Positions 4,561 to 50,192 of a stretch of 64,000 nucleotides of DNA are shown here, piece by piece. Made by a program: the position numbers and the translations under genes. Source of the DNA: Allosphingosinicella sp. (GTDB lineage Bacteria > Pseudomonadota > Alphaproteobacteria > Sphingomonadales > Sphingomonadaceae); the NCBI GenBank assembly GCA_036386475.1, contig DASVVQ010000046.1, forward strand, positions 8,624 to 72,623, given 5' to 3'. The notes under the pieces are model-generated. The model saw only the letters and a list, made by a program, of their open reading frames with translations. It had not been told where the DNA came from and did not search any database. How positions within the stretch are numbered: the stretch's first letter is position 1; each line of letters opens with the position of its first letter.

Positions 4561-4590
4561 AGGGCCCGCCATTCCGGCGGGCCCCTTTCC
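4561..4590. terminator. GC-rich hairpin, candidate intrinsic terminator
   Basis: agggcccgcc-attc-cggcgggccc followed by ctttcc; lies downstream of the 830-aa gene. Confidence 0.45.
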
Positions 4591-4592
4591 GA

Positions 4593-4660
4593 TCATCCTG
4601 AGGAGCGGCTGAGCCTGTCGGAGTCGAAGACGACCGCAGGTGAAGCCCGTCTCGAAGGAC
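4593..4660. repeat. REP-like palindromic element (TCATCCTGAGGAGCG...CGTCTCGAAGGA type)
   Basis: tcatcctgaggagcggctgagcctgtcg...gcccgtctcgaaggac. The inner GAGCCTGTCG also occurs in the element at 60421. Confidence 0.55.
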
Positions 4661-8186: not shown

Positions 8187-9200
8187 CTATTCCAAAGCCG
8201 CCTTCAAGGCCGCGACCACTCCGCTGAGGCGAACAGGTGGCTCCAACAGCTTAGCATAAAGTCTGTCGTCGCGTGCAACGGTTATGCGAGTAGGTTTTGA
8301 GCCGGAAATGTCGGCGTGCTCTCCCGTAAAGCCTTTGAAATGCGCGTCGATCAGAGCATCCATTGGAATCGAAGACAGCACCAACTCCTCAAACCCGTCA
8401 ACCACCGTTCTTGCGACACGCAATCGTTCGAGATCTGCAGCTGTCGCGCCACCGGTGGCGGCGCCCCCGATTCGCGGCGGCCTCGCCTTGAAGCGCCTGT
8501 GACTGGTGGCTTCCACAACGGTCGGCGCGGAAACATGTCGAGGAATAGCGCCCCCATGATGGGACGTGCCGCTACAGCGGAACGTGAGCTGCAAAACCGG
8601 TTCGTGGCGATCAATATGCACGAGACCAAGCTGATCGCGCACTCCGTCAGGATCGAGAGCTGCACTCTGACTGTCGGGAGTCCCCCAGAAGATGTCATAC
8701 TTATGGGCATAATTTCTTCCATTTCTGAACGCGGCGTCTTTCAGCGTTTGACATAGAGTGCGTGCGTGGCGCGCGGTCCAGGGGTCGCTCTCGGATCGCC
8801 GGTTCAACCGCGCTTCGGTGCGCACGTAATCCACCACAATCCTATTGTGGTCGTATAGCATGTCTTCCGCGCGTGATGTTGTATAAACTTCAAATGCGTG
8901 CGACCGCCGACTCCCGAGAGGCCGCGAAAATCGCAAAGCCCTGTTCCCCGGGTGGTGTAGAAAGGCGAAGAGAGCCTTTAGAGCAGATCCAGGAGTCTCT
9001 CGAGGCGATAGTGAATGCCGCAGCGGGGTCCACACTCTGTTCTTGAAGTTGCCTGAGTTGATCGGCTCGACTGGAGCGTTCATTCCTTCGTATAGATTAA
9101 TCAGGAAGATGCGTCCACGTGACGTACGACTTAAGAGACCAATTAAGCTCAGCATTTTCCGCGCACCCCCAATCCTGTCACATAACCAGTTAACTACCAC
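8187..9200 (-). CDS. 337-aa hypothetical protein, first gene of the islet operon
   Basis: GTG-start ORF co-oriented with and tightly packed against the next two genes. Enzyme-like motifs DIFWGTPD, LGLVH, PTVVEA and GFEELV. Start codon uncertain. Confidence 0.65.
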   Translation of the reverse strand: MVVNWLCDRIGGARKMLSLIGLLSRTSRGRIFLINLYEGMNAPVEPINSGNFKNRVWTPLRHSLSPRETPGSALKALFAFLHHPGNRALRFSRPLGSRRSHAFEVYTTSRAEDMLYDHNRIVVDYVRTEARLNRRSESDPWTARHARTLCQTLKDAAFRNGRNYAHKYDIFWGTPDSQSAALDPDGVRDQLGLVHIDRHEPVLQLTFRCSGTSHHGGAIPRHVSAPTVVEATSHRRFKARPPRIGGAATGGATAADLERLRVARTVVDGFEELVLSSIPMDALIDAHFKGFTGEHADISGSKPTRITVARDDRLYAKLLEPPVRLSGVVAALKAALE

Positions 9201-10614: not shown

Positions 10615-12582
<1,968 letters not shown>

Positions 12583-27496: not shown

Positions 27497-28132
27497 TCAG
27501 GCCGCTTCGCCGTTCCTGCCGAGCTGGCGGCCGAGGTCGTCGAGCGTTGCGGCGATATGGTCGCGGGTGAGGGCGCGTACGCGGTAGAGGCGGCGGCCGA
27601 GCCAAGCTTCGAGCAGTTCGCGGTGCTCCCCGGCGGCGCGATCGGCGCGGCCGCCGGGCTCGAGATGGACGCGGACGTAGCGCTCCGAAAGCACGTGGAG
27701 GCGGGCAAGTATCTCCGTCGTCACCGCCTGGCCGGAGGGGCGCACGAGCGCGATGTGGAAGGCGCGATTGCGGGCGCCGACGTCCGCTCGCGCCTGCGCC
27801 ACGGCGCAAGCGAGCTCGGCGGAGGCCGCTGCCGCCTCCGCTCGGTCCGCGTCGGCTGCGGCGAGCGCGCCGGCGGCGGCTGCGTCCGGCTCGAGCTTGA
27901 GGCGCAGCTCGTACACTTCGCGCGCCTCGGCGGCGCTCAGCGGCCGGACGAAGAAGCCGCGATTGGGCTCGGCGCGGACGAGGCCTTCCTGCTCGAGCCG
28001 GGCGAGAGCCTCGCGGAGCGGGATCTTGCTGATGCCGAGCTCGATCGCGAGCGCGTCCTGCCGGATCGAGCGGCCGGCGGCGACCGTGCCGGACAGGATT
28101 CGGTCTCTTACTTGGTCGAGAATGCCTGTCAT
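27497..28132 (-). CDS. GntR family regulator (FCD domain)
   Basis: HTH IRQDALAIELGISKIPLREALARLEQEGLV plus an FCD domain; last gene of the hydroxyproline operon. Confidence 0.9.
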   Translation of the reverse strand: MTGILDQVRDRILSGTVAAGRSIRQDALAIELGISKIPLREALARLEQEGLVRAEPNRGFFVRPLSAAEAREVYELRLKLEPDAAAAGALAAADADRAEAAAASAELACAVAQARADVGARNRAFHIALVRPSGQAVTTEILARLHVLSERYVRVHLEPGGRADRAAGEHRELLEAWLGRRLYRVRALTRDHIAATLDDLGRQLGRNGEAA

Positions 28133-29130
28133 GTGACCGAGAAGCCGCGCCAGAAGGGATCTTCCCGGTCCACCCAGATGGTGTTGAAGCCGGTCGAGAC
28201 GGCCGAGCCCTCGATCGAAGGGATGATGGCGGAATGCGCGCCGACCGCGGTCGCTTCCTCGACGCGGCCGAGGAAGCGCGATCCGATATAGCTTTCATGG
28301 ACGAAGGAGTCGCCGACATCGAGGCGGCCGGCGGCGGCGAGATGGGCAAGGCGCGCGGAGGTGCCCGTGCCGCAGGGGCTGCGATCCAACGCCCGCTCGC
28401 CGTAGAAGACGGCGTTGCGGCCGTCCGCGCCTTCCCCTTTGGGCGCATCGGCCCAGAGGACGTGGCTGACGCCGCGGATACTCTCGTCCAGCGGATGGAC
28501 GGGCTCGAAGGCTTCGCGCACGAGGGCACGGATCGTCCGGCCGTGCTCGACCAGCTGCGACGCGCCGAGATCGTCGAGCCCGGCATAGGGCCCCTGCGGC
28601 TCGACGATCGCGTAGAAATTGCCGCCATAGACGACGTCGACCGTCAGCGGTCCGAACCCCGGCACGTCGATTTCGATGCCGCGGGCAGCGACGTAGGAAG
28701 CGACGTTGCGGATCCTGACCGCAGTCACCTTGCCGCCAGCTTCGCGATATTCGATGCAAATCCTGCCGGCGGGGACGTCGACCGTCAGCCGCCCGGGCTG
28801 GCGCGGCGCGATCAGGCCGTGCTCGAGGCCGAAGCTGACGATGCCGATCGTGCCGTGGCCGCACATCGGCAGGCAGCCGCTCGTCTCCATGAACAGGATC
28901 CCGCAATCGGCCTCCGCGCTCGTCGGCGGGTAGAGGAAACCGCCCGACATCATGTCGTGCCCGCGCGGCTCGAAGCAAAGACTGGTCCGGATCCAGTCGA
29001 AGCGCTCGAGGAAGTCCTGCCGCCGCTCCGACATCGTCGCCCCGCGCAGCAAGGGCGCCCCGCCCGCGACGAGGCGGACCGGGTTTCCCGCGGTGTGCCC
29101 GTCGATGCAGAAGAAGGTATGGCGCGTCAT
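28129..29130 (-). CDS. 4-hydroxyproline epimerase (proline racemase family)
   Basis: IDGHTAGNPVR, EPRGHDMMSG; both catalytic Cys present (MCGHGT, DRSPCGTGTSA). Confidence 0.92.
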   Translation of the reverse strand: MTRHTFFCIDGHTAGNPVRLVAGGAPLLRGATMSERRQDFLERFDWIRTSLCFEPRGHDMMSGGFLYPPTSAEADCGILFMETSGCLPMCGHGTIGIVSFGLEHGLIAPRQPGRLTVDVPAGRICIEYREAGGKVTAVRIRNVASYVAARGIEIDVPGFGPLTVDVVYGGNFYAIVEPQGPYAGLDDLGASQLVEHGRTIRALVREAFEPVHPLDESIRGVSHVLWADAPKGEGADGRNAVFYGERALDRSPCGTGTSARLAHLAAAGRLDVGDSFVHESYIGSRFLGRVEEATAVGAHSAIIPSIEGSAVSTGFNTIWVDREDPFWRGFSVT

Positions 29131-30047
29131 TCGACGACGGCGGCGGCGAGGGCCGGACGCGTTCCTGCCGCCTTTTCCACCATCGCGGTCACCTCGGCGC
29201 GGCGGGCGCCCGCAAGCCGCATGCGTGGCATGCGCACGCGCTCCGAGCCTCTCCCCATGAGCTGCTCGGCGAGCTTGATCGACTGGACGAGGTCGTGCTC
29301 GGCATCGAGGTGGAGGAGCGGCATGAACCACCGATAGATGGCACGGGCAGTCGCGAGATCGCCGCGCTCGAAGGCGGCGAAGAGCGCGACAGACTCGCGC
29401 GGGAAGGCGCTGGTGACGCCGGAGACCCAGCCGGCGGCGCCGAGGATGAGGCCCTCGAGCGCAATGTCGTCCAGGCCGGCCATAAGGGTGAAGCGATCGC
29501 CGAAGCGGTTGACGAGATCGGTGAAGCGGCGCGGGTCCGGCGCGCTCTCCTTGATCGCGGCGACGTTGGCCACGTCCGCCAGCCGCTCGAGCACCTCGAA
29601 GCCGATCGCGACGCGATAGGCGGGCGGATTGTTGTAGAGCATGATCGGCAGCGAGGTGGCCGCGGCCACGGCGCGAAAATGTTCGTACAGCTCCTCCGGC
29701 TTGGGGACGTAGACCATGGCCGGAAGAAGCATCAACGCATCGACACCGATCGCCTCGGCGTCGCGCGCGAAGGCGATCGCGCGGGGCGTGGTCAGCTCCG
29801 AGACTCCGGCGACCAGCGGCACCCGACCGCCGACCGCCGCGACGGCCGCACGCAGGATCTCGCGCTTTTCGGCAGGCTCCAGCGAATTGTTCTCGCCGCA
29901 GGTGCCGAGGAGGATGAGGCCGTCGACGCCGTCGGTTACGAGCGCGCGCTGCACGGCTGCGGTCGCGGCGAGGTCGACCGACAGGTCCTCGGCAAATTGG
30001 GTCGTCGCGGCAGGATAGACGCCGTGCCAGAGCGGACGTGAAGTCAC
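29127..30047 (-). CDS. DapA-like protein, probable pyrroline-4-hydroxy-2-carboxylate deaminase
   Basis: WHGVYPAATTQF, LGTCGEN, MLYNNP, AIKES. GTG start with GAGGA RBS; coupled to the epimerase gene. Confidence 0.85.
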   Translation of the reverse strand: MTSRPLWHGVYPAATTQFAEDLSVDLAATAAVQRALVTDGVDGLILLGTCGENNSLEPAEKREILRAAVAAVGGRVPLVAGVSELTTPRAIAFARDAEAIGVDALMLLPAMVYVPKPEELYEHFRAVAAATSLPIMLYNNPPAYRVAIGFEVLERLADVANVAAIKESAPDPRRFTDLVNRFGDRFTLMAGLDDIALEGLILGAAGWVSGVTSAFPRESVALFAAFERGDLATARAIYRWFMPLLHLDAEHDLVQSIKLAEQLMGRGSERVRMPRMRLAGARRAEVTAMVEKAAGTRPALAAAVVE

Positions 30048-30070
30048 GAGCTGCTTCCTCATTGCTGGTA

Positions 30071-30087
30071 GAAATCGTATACTATAT
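30071..30087. promoter_or_regulatory. AT-rich divergent promoter with GTATAC palindrome, candidate GntR operator
   Basis: gaaatcGTATACtatat in the short gap between the divergent hydroxyproline genes. Confidence 0.3.
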
Positions 30088-30097
30088 GGCCGCTCGC

Positions 30098-31336
30098 ATG
30101 TCAGCCCCCGCGAAGATCGGCAGCGTCATCGTCGTCGGCGGCGGCTCCATCGGCATGAGCTGCGCGCTCTCGCTGCAGTCTCGCGGCATCGCGGCGACCG
30201 TGGTCGATCCCGGGACGCTGCGACCGGCGTCGCTCGGCAATGCCGGCCATATCGCCGTCGAGCAAGTGGAGCCGCTCGCGTCCCTGGCGACGCTGCGGAG
30301 CTTGCCGCGCATGCTCTTCTCGCGCGGTGGGCCGGTCTCGCTCATGCCTCGCGAGATCGGGGCCTGGCTGCCCTTCGCACTTCGCTTCGTGCGTGCCGCG
30401 ACGCCGTCGCGCTTTCGCGCCGGGAGGACGGCGCTCTCCAGCATTGCTGCAGCCGCATTGCCGGCGTGGCGGCGCCAGCTCGAGCGCGCCGGCGCGGCCG
30501 ATCTGCTCCTCGACTGCGGCCATTATGCGGTGTGGGAGACCAGGGACGCCGCCGCATCGGGGCGTCGGCGCTGGGCCGAAACCGATACCGGCGCGGTGAT
30601 CGTGCGCGACGCGTCCGGCGACGAACTGGAGCGAGTTGCCGCGCTGCTGCGCGTCCCGCTCGCAGGTGGAGTCCGCTTCGACGGGAGCGCGCAGATCGCC
30701 GATCTCGACCTGCTCGCCGCTGCGCTCCTGCACGCGTTCGACGCCGGCGGCGGCGTGCGCGTGCGCGGCGCCGCGGGGCGAGTCTCGCCGCGCTCGGTGA
30801 CCCTCGAGACGGGCGAGCGACTGGACGCGGACGCGGTGCTGGTCGCGGCAGGCGCGGCGTCCGGCCGGCTGCTTCCGCGACATTTCGTGCCGATGATCGC
30901 GGAGCGCGGTTATCACCTCCAGACGGCCGAGAGCGAATGGCCGCTCGATCTGCCGCCGGTGGTGTTCGAGGAACGCTCGGTCGTCGTCACCCGCTTCCGC
31001 TCCGGCCTGCGCGCGGCCGGCTTCTTCGAGTTCGCCCGCGCCGACGCGCGGCCCGATCCGCGCAAGTGGGCGCGGCTGCGCGCGCATCTCGACGCGCTCG
31101 GCATCTGCGTTCCGGACGCGGCCGAGTGGACCGGCGCTCGCCCTACCCTCCCGGATTATCTCCCGGTGATCGGGCGCACCAACGAAGGCCTGTTCTATGC
31201 CTTCGGGCACCAGCATCTCGGCCTCACCCTCGCCGCCGCGACCGGCGAGGCGATCGCCGCGCTCGCCGCTGGCGAAGCGCCCGAATTCGATCTATTCCCG
31301 TTCAGGATCGAGCGGTTCGGGAGGCGGCGCGGGTGA
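30098..31336 (+). CDS. FAD-dependent D-amino acid dehydrogenase, probable D-hydroxyproline dehydrogenase
   Basis: VIVVGGGSIG, ASLGNAGHI, ERGYHL, WTGARPTLPDYLPVIG, AFGHQHLGLTLAA; context with the epimerase. Confidence 0.82.
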   Translation: MSAPAKIGSVIVVGGGSIGMSCALSLQSRGIAATVVDPGTLRPASLGNAGHIAVEQVEPLASLATLRSLPRMLFSRGGPVSLMPREIGAWLPFALRFVRAATPSRFRAGRTALSSIAAAALPAWRRQLERAGAADLLLDCGHYAVWETRDAAASGRRRWAETDTGAVIVRDASGDELERVAALLRVPLAGGVRFDGSAQIADLDLLAAALLHAFDAGGGVRVRGAAGRVSPRSVTLETGERLDADAVLVAAGAASGRLLPRHFVPMIAERGYHLQTAESEWPLDLPPVVFEERSVVVTRFRSGLRAAGFFEFARADARPDPRKWARLRAHLDALGICVPDAAEWTGARPTLPDYLPVIGRTNEGLFYAFGHQHLGLTLAAATGEAIAALAAGEAPEFDLFPFRIERFGRRRG

Positions 31337-34285: not shown

Positions 34286-34416
34286 GGAAATGGATGATAG
34301 ACGTACGGAGGCGCGGTTCAACAGGCTGACCGCGCGTCGCGGCTGTTCGGGCTGCGATGGCAGACCGTCCGCCGCCCGCCGAGCAAGCGACCGGGCCGTT
34401 CACTCGCCGGACTAGG

Positions 34417-35118
34417 CTATTCCTGCTCCGGCGCCGCTCCGCCCACCACCATCTCGACCAGCCGCGCCAGCGCGGTCGTGTCGAGGATGACGATGCGCCG
34501 GCGCTCCTGCGCGAGGATGCCCTTGTCGGCGAGCTCGCCCATTTCCCGGGTCACGGCTTCGCGGTGCGTCCCGATTCGGGCGGCGAGGTCGGCATGGGTC
34601 GGCGCAGGCTCGATGGCGACCCGGGTCGAGTCGCTGCCGGCGCACAGGCGCAGCAACTCGCAGTGAAGGCGGCTGCTGACACGCAGCGCGTTGAGCTCGA
34701 ACACCTTTTCGGTCAGATCTCGAACCTGCGCCGTCAAGCGTCGGGCGAGCCAGATCGAAGATTCCGGATCCGCCGCGACGGCTTCGCGGAAGGCGGCCGC
34801 GCCGATGCTGGCGAGGGTACAGCTCGAGACCGCGACGATGGTGGCGGAGCGCGGCTGGCCGTCGATGGCGGCGAGCTCGCCGAACATTGCGCCTTCGCCC
34901 AGGCTCCTCAAAATGACTTCGCGGCCGGCGAGCGAGTAGAGCGTCACCCGCACACGGCCCTTGAGCACGACATAGACGTGATCCGAACGCGCGCCGGACG
35001 ATACCAGCGTTCGCCCCGGCTTCGCGCTCATGGTTGTAGCAGCCGCCCAGAGGCGCTCGGCAAGCGCTCTCGGCAGCCCGCTCATCGCCGGCGGCAGGCC
35101 GAACGAAAGGGTGTTCAC
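34417..35118 (-). CDS. Crp/Fnr family transcriptional regulator
   Basis: GTG start with GGAGG RBS; cNMP-binding cassette FGELAAIDGQPRSAT; HTH THADLAARIGTHREAVTRE. Confidence 0.92.
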   Translation of the reverse strand: MNTLSFGLPPAMSGLPRALAERLWAAATTMSAKPGRTLVSSGARSDHVYVVLKGRVRVTLYSLAGREVILRSLGEGAMFGELAAIDGQPRSATIVAVSSCTLASIGAAAFREAVAADPESSIWLARRLTAQVRDLTEKVFELNALRVSSRLHCELLRLCAGSDSTRVAIEPAPTHADLAARIGTHREAVTREMGELADKGILAQERRRIVILDTTALARLVEMVVGGAAPEQE

Positions 35119-35261
35119 CGGCTCCTCCCTAGTCCGCCCAGTTTGCGCCACCGAAGGGCGACATGCAATTGCTACGCAACCGGAGCGAGTTTTTGCTTGT
35201 ATCGCGTCCGAAGTGGGCAAATGATAAGCAACTACCGGCAAGACCATCGAGGGGGAGGTCC

Positions 35262-38200
35262 ATGCCTGCACAGCCTCTCGAGGCCTTGAACGTCCATGCC
35301 GCGCCAACTGACGGTCCGCGGCGTCGCTATCTTTCGATTCTTTTTTCGGACCTGTCTGAATCGACCCGCCTTGCCAGCCGGCTCGAGGCCGAAGAGTATT
35401 TGGACCTGCTCGCACGCCTCGGGGCCGTCTATCATGCCGTAGTCGCGCGCCACGGCGGCACTGTGGCGCAGATCAGCGGAGACGGCATGCTCGCTTTGTT
35501 CGGCTATCCGGAAGCGCGCGAGGGCGACGGCCGCCGCGCGGTGGAGGCGGCGCTGGAACTCGATGCGGCCGTCGCCTTGCTTGGGACGGGCGGGCGCGGC
35601 GAGGGACCGCTCCGCCTCCATAGCGGCATCCACGCGGGGCTCGTGCTCCTCCAGAGCGGCGACCAATGCCGCGGCCGCTTCGAATTGCTCGGCTGCGCTA
35701 CGAACATCGCCTCGCGGCTGTGCAGTGTTGCCGCTCCGGGCGAAATCCTGGTCAGCGAGGAGACGTTGGGGCCCGAGCGTCACCTGTTCGCAACGAGCGC
35801 GCGCAGCCGGCTGCGCTTGCGGGGCGCCGACGAGCCGGTGCTGACGCTTGCAGTCACTGGACGCGCCGTCGAGGCGCGGAGCGAACCGGCGCCGTTCGTC
35901 GGGCGCGACGCAGAGCTCGCGGCTCTCGCCGCCGACTTCGCCGCGGCCAGAGTCGGCGGGCCGCGAATTACGATCGTCGAGGGTCCGCCTGGCGTCGGCA
36001 AGACCCGCCTCGTCGAGGAATTCCTGCGGCGAGCCGGCGCCGAGGGCTGCGCGATCCACCGCGGCAACTGCGAATCCTCGGCCGAGCCGCTCCGCCCGTT
36101 TCTCGAGATCGCGCGCTCGCTGCTCGGCGTCGCCGGCGACGATCCGCCCGACGTGGACACGGCCGCGTGTGCGCTCGCCGGGATCGATCCTGGGCTTGCG
36201 GACCTGGCGCCGGCTCTTTGCCGGCTGCTCTCGCCGCGGCGCCAATCGACGCCCGGCGACGCGGCCGCGCTCGCCGAGCTGATCGCGCACGCCGGGACGC
36301 TGGGACCGCTCGTCCTGTTCGTCGACGACTGGCACGCGGCCGACGATGCCAGTCGCGAGATGATGGCGCTGCTGCGCACCCTCGAGAAGGGCGCTGTGCT
36401 CGTGCTCGCGACCGCCCGGCCCGATCCAAGGATCGACGGACTATCGGAGGGACTCGAGCGCCTGCGTCTGGCGCCGCTTACCGCGGCGGAGACGGCGGCA
36501 GCGGTCGCCGGCTTGCTGCCCTCCGCCGATCCATTCACGGTCGAGGAAATCGGCGCGGCTTCGGGCGGCAACCCCCTCTTTATCGAGGAGCTCTGCCACG
36601 CAATGGCGGCCGGAGAACGGCACGAGCGCCCGCAGGGCTGCACGCCCTGGCTCGCCAACCTCATCGAATCGCGCGTGTCGCGCCTGCCGCCGGCGGCCGC
36701 CGAGCTCCTTCGCGTCGCCGCGGTGATCGGCAATTCGGTGCCGGCTTGGCTGCTCGAAGCGATCGCCGGCCGCGGCGAGGGCGACCCGTTGGTCCGCTCG
36801 CTCGCCGAGGCGGATTTCCTGTACCCGGGGGAGCGCCCGGGGACGCTGCGCTTCAAGCACGGCATCACTCGCGAGGTGATCTACGATTCGGTCGGCCTCC
36901 ACCAGCGCCGCGGCCGTCACGCCGATATCGCAGCGGCTCTCCGCGCCCGTGCGTCGGCGGCCGGAGAGGACGAGCCTGTCGAGGCTCTCGCTTACCATTT
37001 CGGCGCCGCGGACGAGCTAAACGCAACGGTCCTCTACGCAGAGCAGGCCGGCGACAAGGCGATGGCCGCCTCGGCTCTGGACCGTGCACAGGGCTATTAC
37101 CGCGCCGCACTCGACGCGCTCGAGCGGCTCGAAGATTCGGACGAAAACGCGGCGCGCTGGGATCGGATCGCGCAGCGCTTCGGTCTCGCGGGAGTGTTCG
37201 ATCCGGCCCGCGACCAGCTGCAAGTGTTCGAGCGCGCGATCGAGCGCGCCGGCGCGCGCCGCGACCCGGTCGCGCTTGCCTGGGCAGAATATTGGCTCGG
37301 CTACATCAATTACGGCCTCGGCGAACCGGAAACGGCGAGCGACCATTGCTCGCGCGCGCTCGAATCCGCTCTCGGAACCGGCGACGACCGCCTCGTCGTC
37401 CAAATCCGCGCCACGCTCGGCCAGGCCAAGGCAGCCGCCTGCGACTATCGCGGCGCCCTGCTGCTGCTCGACGAAGCGATCGAGGTGAAGCGCCGCCACC
37501 GCACCGGCCAGCACGCCTCGGTCGGCTTCGCCTATTCGCTTGCCTCCAAGGCATTCGTTCTCGGCGACATGGGCCGCTTTGCCGAGGCGGAGGCGGGTTT
37601 TTCGGAGGCGATGGACGCGGTGCGCGGCGCCGATCACGAGGTCGAGGGGTCGGTGCTGTGCAAGCATGCCGGCGTCTACCTTTGGCAGGGACGGCTCGAG
37701 GAGGCCCTGCGCTGCGCTGAGGAGGCGGAGCGAGTGGCGGTGCGCGTCCACAGCGTCTATCTCTATGCGATGAGCCGCGCGCTCGGCAGCTATGCGCTAT
37801 GGTCGCTCGAGGCCGGCGACGGCCCGATCGAGACCCTGGTCGAGGCGACGGGCTGGCTCGAGGCGAAGGGCCGCGGACTCTACGCCTCGCTCCCCTATGG
37901 CTGGCTCGCCGATGCTCTGGCGAGGCGAGGCGATCCCTCCGGCTCCCGCCGTTACGCCGCCCGCGCCTTGCGCCGCGCGGAAAAAGGCGACCGCCTCGGC
38001 GAGGCGATGGCGTGGCGCGCCATGGCGCGGTCGGCGGCGGCGAGAGGCGCACGGGAAACCTCGCACCGGTGCCTGGAGCGCGCCGAAGCTGCCGGCGCAG
38101 CCCGCGCAGCTGCGCACGAAGCCGCGGCGACGCGGCTCTGCGCCGCCGAGATCGCCGCGGCATCGGGCGACACCGAGCTCGTGCCTCGGCTCGACGCGAT

Positions 38201-38270
38201 GGCCCGTGCCGAAGCCGAGGCGCGCCGCCGCGCCGCTCGCATCAGGTGCCGGGCAGGCGCGGGATCGTAA
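35262..38270 (+). CDS. Class III nucleotide cyclase - AAA/STAND-like ATPase - TPR protein
   Basis: LFSDLSES, AQISGDGMLALFG, GIHAG, GCATNIASRL; Walker A EGPPGVGKT, Walker B LFVDDWH; SGGNPLFIEEL; FKHGITREVIY; C-terminal helical repeats. Confidence 0.9.
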   Translation: MPAQPLEALNVHAAPTDGPRRRYLSILFSDLSESTRLASRLEAEEYLDLLARLGAVYHAVVARHGGTVAQISGDGMLALFGYPEAREGDGRRAVEAALELDAAVALLGTGGRGEGPLRLHSGIHAGLVLLQSGDQCRGRFELLGCATNIASRLCSVAAPGEILVSEETLGPERHLFATSARSRLRLRGADEPVLTLAVTGRAVEARSEPAPFVGRDAELAALAADFAAARVGGPRITIVEGPPGVGKTRLVEEFLRRAGAEGCAIHRGNCESSAEPLRPFLEIARSLLGVAGDDPPDVDTAACALAGIDPGLADLAPALCRLLSPRRQSTPGDAAALAELIAHAGTLGPLVLFVDDWHAADDASREMMALLRTLEKGAVLVLATARPDPRIDGLSEGLERLRLAPLTAAETAAAVAGLLPSADPFTVEEIGAASGGNPLFIEELCHAMAAGERHERPQGCTPWLANLIESRVSRLPPAAAELLRVAAVIGNSVPAWLLEAIAGRGEGDPLVRSLAEADFLYPGERPGTLRFKHGITREVIYDSVGLHQRRGRHADIAAALRARASAAGEDEPVEALAYHFGAADELNATVLYAEQAGDKAMAASALDRAQGYYRAALDALERLEDSDENAARWDRIAQRFGLAGVFDPARDQLQVFERAIERAGARRDPVALAWAEYWLGYINYGLGEPETASDHCSRALESALGTGDDRLVVQIRATLGQAKAAACDYRGALLLLDEAIEVKRRHRTGQHASVGFAYSLASKAFVLGDMGRFAEAEAGFSEAMDAVRGADHEVEGSVLCKHAGVYLWQGRLEEALRCAEEAERVAVRVHSVYLYAMSRALGSYALWSLEAGDGPIETLVEATGWLEAKGRGLYASLPYGWLADALARRGDPSGSRRYAARALRRAEKGDRLGEAMAWRAMARSAAARGARETSHRCLERAEAAGAARAAAHEAAATRLCAAEIAAASGDTELVPRLDAMARAEAEARRRAARIRCRAGAGS

Positions 38271-41200
38271 CGATCAAGGGCGCGGGCAGCGCCTCGATCC
38301 GTCCGACCTCGAGCAGCGCGCACAGCATGCCTGTCATGGCACCCATCGCAAAGGGAAATGCGGGGCAGGCGTGGGTCGGGTGCGGCGTCGCCCTGCGGTT
38401 GCCGCCGAAGACGGGGTAAATGGCGTGATCGTCCGAAGCTTGCGCTTCGGCGGTGGCCGAGGCGATGCCGAGGCAGACCTTGTCGCCTTCGCTTATTGCC
38501 ACTCCGCGGAGAGTGGTCGCCTTCTTCGCCGTCCGCCAGAGGGCGTCCGGCGCCGGGCGCTTGCGCATCGCATCGATGAGGGGCGTCCGCAGCACCCCCT
38601 GGACCGCCGCATGATCGCGCGATGCGGCGTCGACGGCCAACAGGTCGTGCTGGATCCGCCATAGCGTGCCGTGGCTGAGCCAGTCGTAGAGCGTTCCGCG
38701 CAGGCAGCCGTCGGCCGGCGGAAGGAACCCCATCATGACGCCGATCACGGTGCGCGCGATCATGTCCGCCGCGTTTTCGGTGCCGAGAAACTGCTGATAG
38801 ATCGCGTTGGCGATCGGCGCCTGCGGGGCACTGCCGGCGGCGATCCGCTTCTCGTAATGGCGCCGCGCCGCCTCGCGCAGCGCCGTGCCGTCGGCCTGGC
38901 CGCGGCGGGTGAACCCCGCAATCGGGTCGACGTAGAAGATGAAGCTCGAGGGCGCCATGAAGTCGCCGGGGCAGACCGGCCTGCGATCGCCTTGCGGCGT
39001 CCATTTCCACGAGCCGTCCAGGATGTCGTGCCCGGGCTGGGGCTCGACGAGCGGCGGCTGGTCCGGGAAGCCGAAGGTGCCGCGGCAGATGAGCGCGAGC
39101 ACACCGGCAATATAATCGTGGACGAGATCGATCTTGACCGGCCGGTCGGGCTGCGGGAAGTTTCTCGCATAGATGCGCTGGAAGTTTTCCAGATATCCAG
39201 CCCCTGCCTTGCGGGCGGAGGCAAACGCCGCTTCCTCGGTCACCATGGCGATCGCCCCGTTGGCGATGCGGGACTCGTTCCAATACTCATCGCCGGCGTC
39301 GCGCCCGAGATAGATCTCGCCGATCGAATCGCGCATCCGCGGCATGTAGCCATCGACCGAGAACCTCTCGTCGTCGCCCAGCACCTCGTCGATGAGATCG
39401 CGCGAGCCGACGAGGACGACCTCCTTGAGCCTGCCCTTCTCGTCCTTGGGCGGCCAGCCATAGGGGACCTTGATGGCACCGCCGCGCGCGCGGATGGCGG
39501 CCCACACGCGTGGCCCGACATTGCGATCGTCGGGATCGCGGGCAGCGACGTCCTCGAAGCAGGTTTTCCAGGCGAGCGCCTGCGCCTCGGGATCCTGGGC
39601 CTCGATCGCGGCGATGATCTTTTCTCCCTCTTCGGCGGCGGACCCGGCGGGCGCGGCGCGCGGCGCCAATATGGCCTTCAGCCCGGATGCGGAGGGCACG
39701 AAAAGGTACGCGCCCCACTGCAGCTTCACATAGGGGTTCGGCATGCGCAGGCGGATCGTGCGATTCTGGAGGCGGAACACGAACGTCCGCGGGTCCTGGT
39801 CGCGGGCCGGGCCCATCAGCGGGTCGCTCTGGCACGAGGCCACGCGCGTGCTGTTGCCGCCGCTGATCCAGCTCTGCACGACCTCGAACTGCTCGGCGAT
39901 GCTTGCGTTGTAGGCCATGAACATGACCCCGCGCTCGCCGTCGAGCGGCGCATCGCGCGGCGGTCCGTAGGACATGCCGCGGCGCATGATCCGGGGAACC
40001 GGCCTGTCGAAATTCTCCTTCTTGTCGGTGCGCGGATTGGCCCGGCGGATATGCGACTGGAAGGGGCATTGCTGGCCGCGCAGGTCGGATTTGTAGTCGA
40101 AGTCGTTGGAAAGGGTGCTCGTGCCCTGGAGCAGCGGGCTTCCGTCCGGTCGCCGGCCCATCATCTTGCCGAGCAGGTCGTCCCGGAGCTGCGGATAGAC
40201 CGGGAAACCGTTGCGCGTGAGCTCGGCGACGGTCCGATCCAGAAACGCCTCGAGCTCTCCCACCTCCTGCTTGAGCTTGCGGATGACGAGGAAGGTGCCG
40301 TTGTCCCAATGCGCGTTCGCCCGCTGGGGCGGATCGCCGCGGTCGTTGCCGTAACCGATCAGCAGCTCGCCGAGGGCGACGCGATCGCGCTCGGGAACGC
40401 TGGTATCGGAGATCGCCACGGGCTGGCTGAAGCCGTCCAGAAAGCCGAAATGATCCTTGGCCACGGTCCTGTTGCTGCCGTCGCCCAGCCATGCGCGCCG
40501 CATCGACTCGACCGCGAGCAGCTCCACGCCGCTCGCGTCCGGCCCGGCGGCGAGGGCGGCGACCTTGGCTGCGAGGGGATGGAGCGGATCGCCGACGACA
40601 TCATGCCCGGGATAGTCGCTGTTGGTGCGCAGCTGGAGGACGAAGTCGACCTCCTTGAGCTCGACCGGCGGCGCCGCGGCATCGGCCGACGGTGCGCTTC
40701 CGCCCACATCGGCGCGGCACCGGCGAGGGAGCGCCCAGCGCCGGGGATGACTGTCGCCGGTGTCGCCGATCATGCCGGCCCGCGCTTCCATGCCTTCGAG
40801 AAATTCCTGCGGAAGCTGCGCCAGGGTGTCTTCGGATACGCCGAGCGCCCCCAGGCCGGCGAGGGTGAAGGCGAGATTGACGCTCACTCCGCCGTCCGGG
40901 AACGGCGCCGCCTCCGTGCTCAGCTTGAGCGTGCCGAGCCAGGCGCGTGCCTTCTCGGCATCGGCGATCCGCATCAGCATCAGGCAGCCGTGCGTCATCG
41001 GCTTCCCGTCGAGCTCGTAGCCGCCCACGATCCCGGTCTGGACCTCGGCCGGGTCGAAGCGAAGCCGCCCCTCGTCGCGCGGACGCGGAGGGGGCGGCGC
41101 GAGCAGCTCCAGATATTCCGCATATTTGTGCCTGACCGGCGCGGGCAGCTCCTTGGGATCCCAGTCCTGGAGGAGCTTGGCTGCGGCGCGCTTCAGGAAG

Positions 41201-41934
41201 CGGCCTTCCTGCGGATCGTCGGGGGGATAGAAATCGGTCAGCCGCCCGAGCGCGACCAGCGCCTGCAGACCCATGTCCATCGTCTCGGCGACGTTGCGCT
41301 TCTGCGCCGCCTTGGCGCGCTCGACCGGATCGACGGCGCATTCCGACATTGCGATCACGTCGAGGTTCGGCATCAGCGCGTCGCGATGGAGGCGCTCCAT
41401 CTGCGAAAGATACTGGACGTCCGCGATCGTATGATTGGAGGCGGCGTAGAAGAAATCGGTGTCGATCTGCACGCTCCGGACCCAGTCCAGATAGGCCGGA
41501 AACGAGGAGTCGCCGGCGACGACATAGCGCTCGGTGTTGCAGAAAAAGAGGTCGAGAAGCGGCCCGAGAGGATCCCAGACAAGCCGCATATAAGGTTCGA
41601 ACGGTCGGTCGAAGGCGACGGACAGCATCAGCATCTTCGGCCTGGCCCCGCCGGCGGGAAGCGATTGCTCGCCCACGACAGCCGCGTCGGCGTCGAGGAT
41701 GACGATGCGGAAATCGAGCAGCGACTGGATGCGCTCCGCCGATTCGACGAAGGGCTGGAACTTGGAATATTCGCGCGCCGTGGCACGGACCTTGAACAGG
41801 GCGTTCATCACCAGTCGCACGCGCGTCTCGTAGGTGACGGCTTCGAGCGCCGGAACGAAGCCCTGCCGGATCGGCGCCCAGAGCGTCAGGTCGCTGACAT
41901 TTTCCAGATGCTTGCTGCTGACCCTCTTGCCCAT
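38242..41934 (-). CDS. Three-domain heme protein: N-terminal unknown domain, Dyp-type peroxidase and cytochrome P450-like domain
   Basis: Dyp motifs HFGFLDGFSQP, SHIRRANPR, IMRRGMSYG, QFEVVQSW. P450-like C-terminus with DAMRKRP (ExxR position) and FGG...HACP Cys-ligand loop. One uninterrupted 1230-aa ORF. Confidence 0.8.
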   Translation of the reverse strand: MGKRVSSKHLENVSDLTLWAPIRQGFVPALEAVTYETRVRLVMNALFKVRATAREYSKFQPFVESAERIQSLLDFRIVILDADAAVVGEQSLPAGGARPKMLMLSVAFDRPFEPYMRLVWDPLGPLLDLFFCNTERYVVAGDSSFPAYLDWVRSVQIDTDFFYAASNHTIADVQYLSQMERLHRDALMPNLDVIAMSECAVDPVERAKAAQKRNVAETMDMGLQALVALGRLTDFYPPDDPQEGRFLKRAAAKLLQDWDPKELPAPVRHKYAEYLELLAPPPPRPRDEGRLRFDPAEVQTGIVGGYELDGKPMTHGCLMLMRIADAEKARAWLGTLKLSTEAAPFPDGGVSVNLAFTLAGLGALGVSEDTLAQLPQEFLEGMEARAGMIGDTGDSHPRRWALPRRCRADVGGSAPSADAAAPPVELKEVDFVLQLRTNSDYPGHDVVGDPLHPLAAKVAALAAGPDASGVELLAVESMRRAWLGDGSNRTVAKDHFGFLDGFSQPVAISDTSVPERDRVALGELLIGYGNDRGDPPQRANAHWDNGTFLVIRKLKQEVGELEAFLDRTVAELTRNGFPVYPQLRDDLLGKMMGRRPDGSPLLQGTSTLSNDFDYKSDLRGQQCPFQSHIRRANPRTDKKENFDRPVPRIMRRGMSYGPPRDAPLDGERGVMFMAYNASIAEQFEVVQSWISGGNSTRVASCQSDPLMGPARDQDPRTFVFRLQNRTIRLRMPNPYVKLQWGAYLFVPSASGLKAILAPRAAPAGSAAEEGEKIIAAIEAQDPEAQALAWKTCFEDVAARDPDDRNVGPRVWAAIRARGGAIKVPYGWPPKDEKGRLKEVVLVGSRDLIDEVLGDDERFSVDGYMPRMRDSIGEIYLGRDAGDEYWNESRIANGAIAMVTEEAAFASARKAGAGYLENFQRIYARNFPQPDRPVKIDLVHDYIAGVLALICRGTFGFPDQPPLVEPQPGHDILDGSWKWTPQGDRRPVCPGDFMAPSSFIFYVDPIAGFTRRGQADGTALREAARRHYEKRIAAGSAPQAPIANAIYQQFLGTENAADMIARTVIGVMMGFLPPADGCLRGTLYDWLSHGTLWRIQHDLLAVDAASRDHAAVQGVLRTPLIDAMRKRPAPDALWRTAKKATTLRGVAISEGDKVCLGIASATAEAQASDDHAIYPVFGGNRRATPHPTHACPAFPFAMGAMTGMLCALLEVGRIEALPAPLIVTIPRLPGT

Positions 41935-42047
41935 GCGCGGCTCTCCTGTTTCGCTCGTTCTGGCCCCGCGGCCGGCGGTGGGTCTGTGTCATTTCGCACA
42001 GGGCGTGGCGCGACTTCGGATACCCGAGGCAAAGCCTCGCAAGAGCC

Positions 42048-42479
42048 TCAGTTCTTGCCGCCCCCGCGGCGGCTCATCGCGTCGGCGACCGGATCGGCGA
42101 CCGTCTCGCCCGGCCATTCGCGGCTGCAGGCAGCGGTGATCGAGGCATGGAAGACGCTGCCCGGCGGCGCCGTCAGCGGCTCGCCGGACGGTCGCCAGGT
42201 GTCGCTCCTCCCGTCGGTCAGGAAGGCCGTCATCTCGAGCGTGCTGAGCTCGAAGCTGCGGCAGTCGGCGCGCTGGCGGGCGAGCGAGCGCGTCATGCCG
42301 CGCGGCGCATCGAGGAAGATCATCGTTTCCAGATATTCGACCCGGTCGCCGCTGCGGTTCACCGATTCGGCATCGACATAGGTCGATCCGCGCAGCGTGA
42401 CACCGGTCAGACGCCAGTCCGCGGCTTGGGCCGGGGCCGCGGCCAGCAGCACCGGCAGGCATAGGGCAAGACGCTTCAT
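42048..42479 (-). CDS. Secreted protein, surface-adhesin E-like
   Basis: Signal peptide; YVDAESVNRSGDRV...ADC...LxC pattern. Confidence 0.6.
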   Translation of the reverse strand: MKRLALCLPVLLAAAPAQAADWRLTGVTLRGSTYVDAESVNRSGDRVEYLETMIFLDAPRGMTRSLARQRADCRSFELSTLEMTAFLTDGRSDTWRPSGEPLTAPPGSVFHASITAACSREWPGETVADPVADAMSRRGGGKN

Positions 42480-42717
42480 CCTTCATTCCTCCCCGGGCGC
42501 GCGAGTCGTCCGCGCTCCTCTCCCCGGAGACTAGCATTCGATGCGGCGGTGGAAACGGGAATGTGGCAACGGCAAGCCCGTCTTAAGGAACGGCGTGCAA
42601 CCGCTTTTTTTACAAGCAAAGCGGAATCGGTGCCGCTATGCTGCTCGCGAATGCCGGCCGGGGGGCCGGCGCAACCTTGTGGAGGGGGGAGAGACGCCGA
42701 CGAAGGAGTAAACGTCA

Positions 42718-48098
<5,381 letters not shown>

Positions 48099-48102
<4 letters not shown>

Positions 48103-50192
48103 CGGCAAGCGACTCCGAGCCGGCCGCGGACGTCGACGCGCCCGCCGTGGGCGCCGACGCGCTCGATCGGCCGCGAGTCCTGGTCGTCGACGACGACGAG
48201 CACAATCTGCTCGCCATCCGGACCGTGCTTGAGGACGTCGGCGACATCGTCATCGCGCGCTCGGGCGAGGAGGCGCTGCGCCACCTCCTCAAGGGCGAGT
48301 TCGCGGTCATCCTGCTCGACGTCTACATGCCGGGCATCGACGGCTACGAGACCGCGCAGATGATCCGCAGCCGCGAGCAGACCAAGCGCATCCCGATCGT
48401 CTTCCTCTCGGCCGTGAACAAGGAAACCGAGCATCTGATGCGCGGCTATTCGATGGGCGCGGTCGACTATGTGTTCAAGCCGGTCGAGCCGATCGTGCTG
48501 CGCTCCAAGGTCGCCGTCTTCGTCGATCTGTTCGCGATGACCAAGGAGATCCAGCGCAAGGCGGCGGCCGAGCAGGCTTTGCTCGACGCCAATTTGCGCG
48601 CCAATGCCGAGCGCCTGCGGATCGAGCAGGAGCTGCGCCTCGCCGAGCAGCGCCAGGCGGCGATCATCCAGTCCCTCCCGATCATCCTCTATCTCGAGGC
48701 GCTCGACGCCGCCCCGCGCGTGCCCAAGTTCGTCAGCGGCAATTTCTCGGCCCTGACCGGCTACGAGTTCGAGGAGATTCAGGCCTCGCCCAGCCTCTGG
48801 ATCGACCGGCTTCATCCCGAAGACCGCGACCGCGTCCTGACGGCGCTGGCGGGGCGCCCGCACGGCCGCTCGCTCTCAGTCGAATATCGCTGGCAATGCG
48901 CCGACGGCCAGTACCGCCACTTCCTCGACCAGGCGGTGCTGCTCAAGGATCCCGACGGCGTGCCGATCGAATATGCCGGTACGCTCCTCGACGTCACCCA
49001 TCGCCGTGAGCTGGAGAGCCAGCTCGTCCAGGCGCGCAAGATGGACGCGATCGGCAAATTGACCGGCGGCATCGCCCACGACTTCAACAATCTCCTTGCC
49101 GCCGTCCTCGGCGGACTCGGCCTGATCGAGCGCCGGCTGCCGCTCGAGGAGGAGCATTTGAAGGTCCTCAACATGACGCGGCGCGCGGCCGAGCAGGGCT
49201 CCGAGCTCGTCGGCCGCCTCCTCGCCTTCGCGCGTCGCCAGCAGCTCGAGCCGGCCTGCATCGAGATCGACGCGCTCGCGACCGCCGTCACCGACCTCCT
49301 CGCCCATACGCTGGGCGGGCTCGTCGAGCTCGAATGGAAGATGGACGAGGAGCTGGGCTGCGCCTTTGCCGACCAGTCGCAGCTCGAGCTCGCGCTCATG
49401 AACCTCATCATCAACGCCCGCGACGCCATGCCGGAGGGCGGCACGATCACCGTGCGGGCAGAGAACCGGACGGCGTCCGCCGATCCCGAGAGCGGGCTCG
49501 CCGCGGGCGACTATGTGGTCATCGCGGTCTCCGACGCCGGCTGCGGGATTTCGCCGGAGATCATGGAACAGGTGATGGAGCCCTTCTTCACCACCAAGGA
49601 GGTCGGCAAGGGCACCGGCCTGGGCCTGTCGATGGTCTACGGCTTCGCCAAGCAATCGGGCGGCGCGTTCCGGATCGAAAGCGAGGTGGGCATCGGGACA
49701 CGCGCCGAAATCTGGCTGCCGCGCGGTCTGGAGGAGGAGTCGGCGTCCCCCGCCGAGCCTGCCGGGAAAGAAGTCCACCGGGCACCAATAGAGGGTCTGA
49801 CGATTCTCGTCGTCGACGACCATGAAGGCGTGCGCACGACGACCGCGGCGCTGCTCTCCGATCTCGGCCACGACGTGATCGAGGCAGGGGACGGCCCGGA
49901 AGTCCTCGCCTTGCTGGCGAGCGATCCCGGCTGCTGCGACCTCCTCATCACCGATTATGCGATGCCGCACGTATCGGGCGCCGAGGTGATCCGGCAGGCG
50001 CGCGAGGTGCGTCCGGGGCTGCCGGCGATCATCATCACCGGCTATGCCGATGCCCAATCGATCGCGCGGCGCCCTGACGACGTCGTCGTCCTCGCCAAGC
50101 CGTTCACGCCCGCCCAGCTGCTGTCCGCGATCGAAGCGGTGCGTTCGGCACTGACCGCACCGGGGCAGGAGCTCCTCAAGGCCGCCTCCTGA
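48099..50192 (+). CDS. REC-PAS-HisKA-HATPase-REC hybrid kinase with OsaB-like N-terminus
   Basis: GTG overlaps the upstream [15 protein letters not shown]...[29 protein letters not shown] (IHPEDR-like, EYRW), [23 protein letters not shown]-terminal REC. Confidence 0.93.

Follow-up and report, generated by a model that had tools for sequence, protein, structure and literature searches.

A STAND-type cyclase, a Crp regulator and a two-haem DyP-P450 enzyme encoded side by side in Allosphingosinicella sp.: probably a second-messenger switch for an oxidative reaction

In a 64,000-nucleotide stretch of the genome of Allosphingosinicella sp. (assembly GCA_036386475.1, contig DASVVQ010000046.1, forward strand, positions 8,624 to 72,623; hereafter the window), three neighbouring genes encode a Crp/Fnr-family transcription factor, a cyclase-STAND protein that joins a class III nucleotide cyclase to an ATPase and a TPR array, and a 1230-amino-acid (aa) enzyme in which a DyP-type haem peroxidase is fused to a divergent P450-fold domain. 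The arrangement is more than chance, since the same layout recurs in 73 of 80 related loci, and a CRP box (the palindrome bound by Crp-type regulators) lies just upstream of the enzyme gene. From sequence comparison, it appears reasonably likely that the three genes constitute one conserved functional cassette, running from a sensor to a cyclic nucleotide, from the nucleotide to Crp and from Crp to the enzyme gene, and this cassette is probably a second-messenger switch for an oxidative reaction. The argument starts from what was directly observed, namely gene content, domain identities, catalytic residues, linkage, co-occurrence, and the enrichment and position of the CRP boxes. The features of the locus are as follows.

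34417-35118, minus strand: crp, Crp/Fnr-family predicted cyclic-nucleotide-dependent transcription factor, 233 aa (Pfam domains, ribosome-binding site before the GTG)
35119-35261: divergent crp/cyclase spacer, 143 bp, between the crp GTG and the cyclase ATG
35262-38270, plus strand: cyclase-STAND gene, ~1002 aa (Pfam, NCBIfam, alignments)
38242-38270: 29 bp shared by the convergent cyclase and DyP-P450 genes at their 3' ends (open reading frame coordinates)
38242-41934, minus strand: DyP-P450 gene, 1230 aa, three domains (open reading frame, domain analysis)
41065-41934, minus strand: N-terminal domain (N-domain), aa 1-290, family-specific and conserved
39664-41046, minus strand: DyP-type haem peroxidase domain, aa 297-757, class V (C/D type) (PDB, TIGR01413, conserved residues)
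38245-39663, minus strand: divergent P450-fold domain, aa 758-1230 (structure-profile search, AlphaFold, Foldseek, hhalign)
41985-42000: CRP box TGTGTCATTTCGCACA, a perfect TGTG-N8-CACA, its centre 58 bp upstream of the DyP-P450 start codon

An initial annotation of the window had described a Crp regulator with an intact cassette for binding cyclic nucleoside monophosphates (cNMP), divergent from a cyclase-AAA-TPR gene that overlaps by 29 bp a convergent gene for a 1230-aa dual-heme Dyp-P450. The overlap is exactly as described, and the divergence agrees with the gene coordinates, the 143-bp spacer lying close to the 35120-35260 given there. The cNMP cassette is confirmed by a PF00027 match and conserved phosphate-binding residues, and the composition of the cyclase gene by Pfam matches to Guanylate_cyc, AAA_16 and TPR families. 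The pairing of DyP and P450 folds in the enzyme stands as well, with two corrections: the P450 part has no Pfam match and was found by structure comparison, and an extra N-domain occupies aa 1-290.

Linkage of the cyclase and enzyme genes

One genome per prokaryote species was scanned, yielding 348 DyP-P450 loci. The 80 best, each taken with 10 kb on either side, made up the sample; they come from alpha-, beta- and gammaproteobacteria (Sphingomonadales, Caulobacterales, Bradyrhizobium, many Burkholderiales and some metagenome-assembled genomes of Pseudomonadales). A full-length cyclase-STAND homologue (37-72% identity over ~950 aa) adjoins the DyP-P450 gene in 73 of the 80, and in the other seven the contig ends within ~1.2 kb of the enzyme gene. 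The two genes stand tail-to-tail in 71 loci and are co-directional in two, both from Bradyrhizobium; their 3' ends overlap in 39 of 67 pairs, with gaps of at most 50 bp in a further 16. All-against-all clustering of the ~1000 open reading frames flanking the enzyme gene left only three conserved families: the enzyme itself (76 loci), the cyclase (67) and Crp (29 under this strict clustering). Moreover, the full fusion occurs in three of 201 genomes belonging to the window's order, and a cyclase homologue (E <= 1e-30) in exactly the same three, adjacent to it. Pairwise distances of enzyme and cyclase are correlated (Mantel r 0.83), which is weak evidence, as it is expected of any two vertically inherited genes.

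A coincidental neighbourhood, in which three functionally unrelated genes are merely adjacent here, would be consistent with the convergent orientation and with the absence of a shared promoter in the window. This explanation is refuted by the recurrence of the pair in three proteobacterial classes, by the exact match of presence and absence in the 201 genomes and by the lack of any other conserved neighbour, leaving it a negligible probability.

The co-occurrence of the three families in other neighbourhoods, proposed as a check by the initial annotation, was thus found for cyclase and enzyme in 73 of 80 loci and for Crp, searched by tblastn, in 38 of 80. The linked crp gene precedes a co-directional cyclase gene, as in an operon, in 15 loci, is divergent from it, the layout of the window, in 10 and stands directly upstream of the enzyme gene in 9. 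One copy of the cassette, complete with cyclase and Crp, is carried by the mobilizable 200-kb plasmid pDB-1 of Sphingopyxis sp. DBS4 (NZ_CP102385.1, 35652-52030), where a Tn3-family transposon has truncated the DyP-P450 gene at its 5' end; in RefSeq, the partner genes are labelled simply 'AAA family ATPase' and 'Crp/Fnr family transcriptional regulator'. This plasmid copy is consistent with the patchy phyletic distribution of the cassette.

Around the Crp-less loci, the only recurrent neighbours are genes of patatin-like, alpha-amylase and sensor-kinase type, each found in a minority of loci. In ~10 loci from Bradyrhizobium, Variovorax, Xenophilus and others (L012:1411-3465, L016:7802-9940, L018:2207-4216, L023, L030, L040, L041, L049 and L051), the DyP-P450 gene is immediately preceded by a co-directional gene for a patatin-like protein of ~700 aa. 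These loci mostly have no Crp within 10 kb, the exceptions being L041, L049 and L051; the patatin-like neighbour may be a hint of a lipid substrate. In 11 Burkholderiales loci that lack Crp (L027:16855-18117 and 10 others of the Roseateles/Pelomonas type), the cyclase gene is immediately preceded by a co-directional gene for a 420-aa protein without a Pfam family.

The Crp regulator and its boxes

The long open reading frame of crp spans 34417-35415 on the minus strand and matches cNMP_binding (PF00027, E 1.4e-22) and HTH_Crp_2 (PF13545, E 1.6e-14) in Pfam. Because similarity to its relatives begins only at about residue 100 and a GGAGG ribosome-binding site precedes the GTG at 35118, the gene most likely extends over 34417-35118. 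The closest solved DNA-binding relative is Clr of Sinorhizobium meliloti (7pza, E 1.5e-20), and CRP of Escherichia coli is also close. The phosphate-binding residues of the cNMP pocket are retained (FGE...RSAT), FGELAAIDGQPRSAT aligning with E72, R82 and S83 of E. coli CRP, as is the R-E-x-x-x-R pattern of the recognition helix, HREAVTR aligning with SRETVGR of CRP. By its sequence, this helix is of the type that reads TGTGA half-sites.

CRP boxes were defined as TGTG-N8-CACA, with at most one mismatch admitted in the counts at enzyme promoters (background 0.021 per 150 bp). The box at 41985-42000 is the sole perfect match in the 64-kb window, where 0.2 would be expected. Across the sample, 16 of 36 Crp-linked loci have a box 58-120 bp ahead of the enzyme gene, compared with 3 of 42 unlinked ones (Fisher p = 1.6e-4), and one of these three is a 3.6-kb contig on which a Crp could not have been visible. 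One or two boxes also lie upstream of crp in 10 of 38 Crp-linked loci, in all of which crp precedes a co-directional cyclase gene; in five (L006, L009, L014, L026 and L059) the boxes are paired exactly 23 bp apart. Box pairs of the same spacing were seen in L091 at 4561-4599 and 12343-12381, and one genome (G183) has boxes ahead of crp, of the enzyme gene and of the cyclase gene. Such 23-bp pairs upstream of crp or of the cyclase gene suggest cooperative or tandem binding together with autoregulation.

The window's genome as a whole (3.0 Mb, 94% complete) contains nine perfect boxes, equal to the number expected by chance. Those in or close to other promoter regions are at C6:4002, C11:48604, C25:8778, C35:12643, C40:100207 and C42:1402 of this assembly (G000), and the genes beside the other boxes encode two polyhydroxybutyrate synthases (phaC), a cyanophycin synthetase, an acyl-CoA dehydrogenase / S8 peptidase pair and a LysR regulator.

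The cyclase-STAND protein and the two-haem enzyme

The long open reading frame of the cyclase-STAND gene spans 35163-38270 on the plus strand; its probable start is the ATG at 35262, preceded by GGGGGAGG, and it is this placement that gives the divergent spacer its 143 bp. The protein (P0002 numbering) comprises a class III cyclase domain at aa 57-223, an AAA_16/STAND NTPase at aa 244-413 and a TPR array at about aa 690-1000, with Pfam matches to Guanylate_cyc (2.4e-15), AAA_16 (3.1e-23), TPR_12 (5.1e-16) and TPR_MalT (6.7e-6). NCBIfam TIGR03903 matches at 251 bits (E 1.6e-74, model positions 255-1246), under its cut-off of 706. No helix-turn-helix or LuxR-type DNA-binding output domain was found in the protein with Pfam or NCBIfam, and by its domain content the cyclase is its only output.

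Alignment to CyaC (1wc0) places the metal-binding D63 and D107, as well as N181 and R185, on their counterparts. In the 68-sequence family alignment the two metal-binding Asp are each kept in 66 sequences, the Asn in 57 and the Arg in 55, and the STAND Walker A K280 and Walker B D388/D389 are invariant (68/68). The catalytic residues of the cyclase are equally kept in loci with or without a linked Crp. At the base-selecting positions the first residue is Arg in 46 of the 68 sequences and Gln in 19, never Lys, and the second position is occupied by Glu in 51 and by Asp in 12; in the window protein the pair is Gln103/Glu174. Because this pair is unusual, the product cannot be predicted from it, and cAMP is a default guess.

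Such non-canonical residues would suit a Pycsar/Avs-type system of anti-phage defence or conflict, in which the STAND sensor would detect an invader and a cyclic, possibly pyrimidine, nucleotide would trigger an effector. The patchy distribution (3 of the 201 genomes of the order), the copy on a mobilizable plasmid, and domain-level PADLOC results, in which the cyclase matches PycC (best E 1.5e-10) and the cNMP domain of Crp matches Pycsar TIR effectors, point the same way. However, these matches are weak and of a kind shown by every class III cyclase and every cNMP domain; PADLOC returned none for the large enzyme, and no other defence genes are conserved around the cassette. Moreover, the nucleotide receptor is not a toxic effector but a DNA-binding transcription factor with matching boxes at promoters. 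As PADLOC gave domain-level matches only, with no pairing to a TIR or transmembrane effector, we rejected the defence reading and regard it as very unlikely.

The 1230-aa enzyme belongs to a family of at least 635 proteins, more than 100 of them full-length, that databases name only 'Dyp-type peroxidase' or 'hypothetical protein'. Its DyP domain matches PDB 8re3 (E 3.5e-28, or 9.4e-61 with the family profile) and TIGR01413 (E 1.7e-24), and the distal Asp500 (GFLDG, the GxxDG motif), the proximal His628 (SHIRRANPR) and the distal Arg651/652 are invariant in 30 homologues.

The N-domain has 38 invariant columns among 17 homologues, and Pfam searched with the isolated piece returned nothing useful even at E <= 10. 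Its AlphaFold model is moderate (predicted local distance difference test, pLDDT, 69) and Foldseek found no significant match to it, only weak look-alikes among dimeric alpha/beta-barrel (ferredoxin-like) folds; the domain may consist of a ferredoxin-like alpha+beta core with a helical part after it. The N-domain profile gave 704 matches among 1.84 billion representative proteins, nearly all of them N-terminal in proteins of 1150-1700 aa. A subgroup bearing this domain (P0180-P0254) measures 1520-1735 aa, i.e., 300-500 aa longer than the window protein, and presumably carries an additional domain.

The C-terminal part does not match Pfam PF00067 even at E <= 10. A profile of it built from 14 homologues was compared with all solved structures, and 29 of 30 matches were P450s, colinear along their length, with a best E of 7e-4. 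Its AlphaFold model is of good quality (pLDDT 89.4, predicted template modelling score 0.89), and Foldseek returned 1650 matches to it at E <= 0.001; the 50 listed are all P450s, aligned over the whole length with a template modelling score of ~0.57 and ~15% identity. Cys1190 (codon 38365-38367), invariant in the 30 homologues, stands directly ahead of model helix 438-453, equivalent to the P450 L helix, and is the presumed haem thiolate ligand. The canonical P450 signatures are not kept: the haem loop reads HPTHACPA versus FxxGxRxCxG, and the presumed I-helix GVMMGFLPPADG, placed by sequence pattern and as the longest helix of the model, not by superposition, lacks the acid-alcohol pair. An earlier description of the haem loop as a 7-residue insertion was withdrawn; since hhalign aligns FGG with the meander motif of a normal P450, the loop is called merely non-canonical.

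No signal peptide or twin-arginine motif was seen in the enzyme sequence, which is that of a cytoplasmic protein, and no reductase partner for the P450 was found nearby. With no reductase close by and the usual O2-activating residues missing, the most likely substrate of the enzyme is H2O2 or an organic hydroperoxide, possibly that of a lipid, and a monooxygenase activity is less likely. The term 'peroxide-using' itself would follow from its family membership.

The same parts occur as separate genes in one further locus, L089 (G190:C8:1928000-1943000), which encodes Crp (minus strand), a 346-aa N-domain-like protein, a stand-alone DyP, a stand-alone P450 and a cyclase-AAA-TPR protein, the P450 gene lying in an operon behind the cyclase gene and converging on the DyP gene. 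The 346-aa protein has predicted membrane helices and aligns with the N-domain core (hhalign probability 69%, E 4e-5). The stand-alone P450 is recognised by Pfam (E 1.9e-13), carries the canonical loop FGFGLHWCIG and aligns with the C-terminal domain of the fusion with the Cys residues matched (hhalign probability 97%, E 8.6e-11). This split cluster therefore independently ties all five parts together and connects the hidden P450 domain to the P450 family. A box-like site with one mismatch lies ~120 bp upstream of its cyclase gene, such sites being no commoner than chance in the 15-kb locus.

Elsewhere in the window, a 143-aa protein with a signal peptide (MKRLALCLPVLLAAAPAQA) is encoded at 42048-42479 on the minus strand, between the CRP box and a gene (42718-48102, plus strand) for a hybrid histidine kinase of 1794 aa. 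About ten HAMP repeats, a GAF domain, a kinase core and two receiver domains make up this kinase, and its gene is followed by a receiver-PAS-kinase gene (47961-50192, plus strand). The 143-aa protein has no homologue in the 80 loci, and the two kinase genes are not conserved beside the cassette in other genomes. We ruled out the flanking DUF885 gene, the small secreted protein and the HAMP hybrid kinase as parts of the cassette, all being absent from other loci. Genes for proline-racemase-family, DHDPS-family and FAD-dependent (DAO) oxidoreductase proteins lie together at 28129-31336, in what looks like a hydroxyproline catabolism cluster.

The proposed circuit and its relation to known systems

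We propose a model in which the TPR array would read a ligand and lead to nucleotide-dependent oligomerisation of the AAA_16/STAND module, which would pair the class III cyclase domains into catalytic dimers and result in the synthesis of a cyclic nucleotide. The nucleotide would then bind Crp, and Crp would bind the box at 41985-42000, 58 bp upstream of the 1230-aa gene, and activate its transcription. The resulting three-domain cytoplasmic enzyme (N-domain, His-ligated DyP and Cys-ligated P450-fold) would employ both haems for peroxide-based chemistry rather than for O2/NAD(P)H monooxygenation. Four elements of this model are inferred: that control is by activation, which nucleotide is made, what the sensor binds and which chemistry the enzyme carries out. 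The circuit put forward in the initial annotation, in which sensor, second messenger, transcription factor and effector would govern the enzyme, is supported by comparative genomics through linkage, co-occurrence and CRP boxes.

Several observations weigh against such a circuit. There is no Crp within 10 kb in 42 of the 80 loci, and no other cNMP-binding protein was found among 119 immediate neighbours in the Crp-less loci, so that the strict partnership is that of the cyclase with the enzyme, not of Crp with the enzyme. The tail-to-tail layout is unusual for co-regulated genes. The base-selecting pair matches neither the ATP rule (Lys/Asp) nor the GTP rule (Glu/Cys or Ser). In the window, the crp-cyclase spacer contains no CRP box at up to two mismatches (scan of 35081-35300), the single two-mismatch site of that interval falling at the cyclase start codon, and a consensus scan of 34300-42700 recognised no sigma-70-like promoter near the box. 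The window's genome also encodes two further class III cyclases, one with a CHASE2 domain; its only Crp detected by tblastn is that of the window, and six to seven of the eight other perfect boxes are in or near other promoter regions. Because it is the sole Crp and boxes are found at other promoters, this Crp may run a small regulon of the storage-polymer type instead of being a private regulator. Altogether, 'self-contained', as the circuit had been called, is an overstatement, given that about half of the loci lack Crp, that the genome has one Crp and two more cyclases, and that boxes stand at other promoters.

Accordingly, the functional unit could be restricted to the cyclase-STAND protein and the enzyme. 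The sensor would read the substrate or product of the enzyme, or bind the enzyme itself; the nucleotide would be read elsewhere, and Crp would be a general cAMP regulator, often a neighbour and not specific to the enzyme gene. The adjacency of cyclase and enzyme in 73 of 73 informative loci, compared with a linked Crp in just 38 of 80, argues for this explanation. So do the equal conservation of the cyclase catalytic residues in Crp-less loci, the single Crp paralogue of the genome with similar boxes at the promoters of storage-polymer genes, and the split version, with its P450 gene in an operon with the cyclase gene. Nevertheless, boxes are strongly enriched at a fixed distance before the enzyme gene, specifically where a Crp is linked, and Crp has been kept in the cassette through three gene orders and also on the plasmid copy. 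We consider the two-gene unit possible, if doubtful, and retain the three-gene cassette as the preferred model.

We also considered a bacterial lipid-mediator circuit, in which a lipase would free an acyl chain, DyP and P450 would make an oxylipin-like product via a hydroperoxide, the STAND cyclase would sense the lipid or its precursor, and Crp would set the enzyme level in a feedback loop. Within this circuit, the selector (Arg/Gln with Glu/Asp) suggests that the nucleotide may not be plain cAMP. As a whole, it seems to us unlikely, and a lipid or oxylipin role is a lead only, taken from the patatin-like neighbours and from analogy with the fungal enzyme PpoA (see below).

Each part of the cassette comes from a known family. 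The cyclase-ATPase-TPR signal proteins of Mycobacterium tuberculosis (Rv0386, Rv1358 and Rv2488c) and the TIGR03903 'TOMM system kinase/cyclase fusion protein' have the same domain order, i.e., class III cyclase, AAA/STAND NTPase and TPR. MalT and Rv0386 carry a LuxR-type DNA-binding output domain, and Rv0386 is likewise without the Lys/Asp pair. In contrast, the window cyclase has neither a kinase nor a LuxR domain, and its family selects with Gln or Arg and Glu or Asp. To our knowledge, no protein of the Rv0386 or TIGR03903 type is paired with a DyP-P450 enzyme.

The wiring of cyclase, Crp and target is precedented by the cAMP cascade of S. meliloti (cyaD1/cyaD2/cyaK-Clr-smc02178), in which receptor-type class III cyclases feed the Crp-like Clr; Clr recognises a 16-bp palindrome and induces a target gene of unknown function (PMC5498481, PMC4222275, PMC10127613). 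Although the order of cyclase, Crp-like regulator and target gene is the same, the S. meliloti cyclases are membrane CHASE2 receptors, whereas those described here are cytoplasmic STAND-TPR proteins, and the target there is not a haem enzyme, as it is here. The Clr site consensus is HGTYHCNNNNGRWACA (PMC10127613), while the sites here are TGTG-N8-CACA. No strict pairing of cyclase and target across classes has been reported in the literature for the S. meliloti system.

For the enzyme, the best available working model is that of fungal PpoA and the linoleate diol synthases, natural two-haem fusions in which a peroxidase-type domain is joined to a self-sufficient P450 that works without a reductase and rearranges the hydroperoxide formed by the first domain (PMC13049297, PMC9579011). 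However, the first domain of PpoA is of the cyclooxygenase/animal peroxidase superfamily, different from that of DyP, the P450 domains have no sequence relationship beyond the fold, and a lipid activity is known for the fungal side only. Another natural fusion of DyP and P450 is DyP subclass V4, described in a sequence survey and experimentally unexplored, with an N-terminal P450, transmembrane segments and a C-terminal DyP (PMC9719856). V4 has the opposite domain order, is membrane-bound and has a P450 seen by InterPro, whereas the family described here is soluble, has the extra N-domain and contains a P450 that escapes Pfam.

The literature search found no paper joining DyP, cyclase and Crp, and found DyP and P450 fusions only as artificial constructs or in the V4 survey; none describes the cassette, which agrees with the statement of the initial annotation that no characterised system with this set was known to it. 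Two aspects are new: a STAND-type cyclase strictly partnered with one particular enzyme across three proteobacterial classes, and a natural soluble DyP/P450 fusion whose P450 is too divergent for the databases and which carries a family-specific N-domain. If the proposed circuit is true, the cassette would constitute a ready-made inducible switch, the signal of which could be found by screening, and would provide a class III cyclase with a new base-selecting pair. Its two-haem enzyme may then show a bacterial peroxide-relay chemistry resembling that of PpoA, built from different parts.

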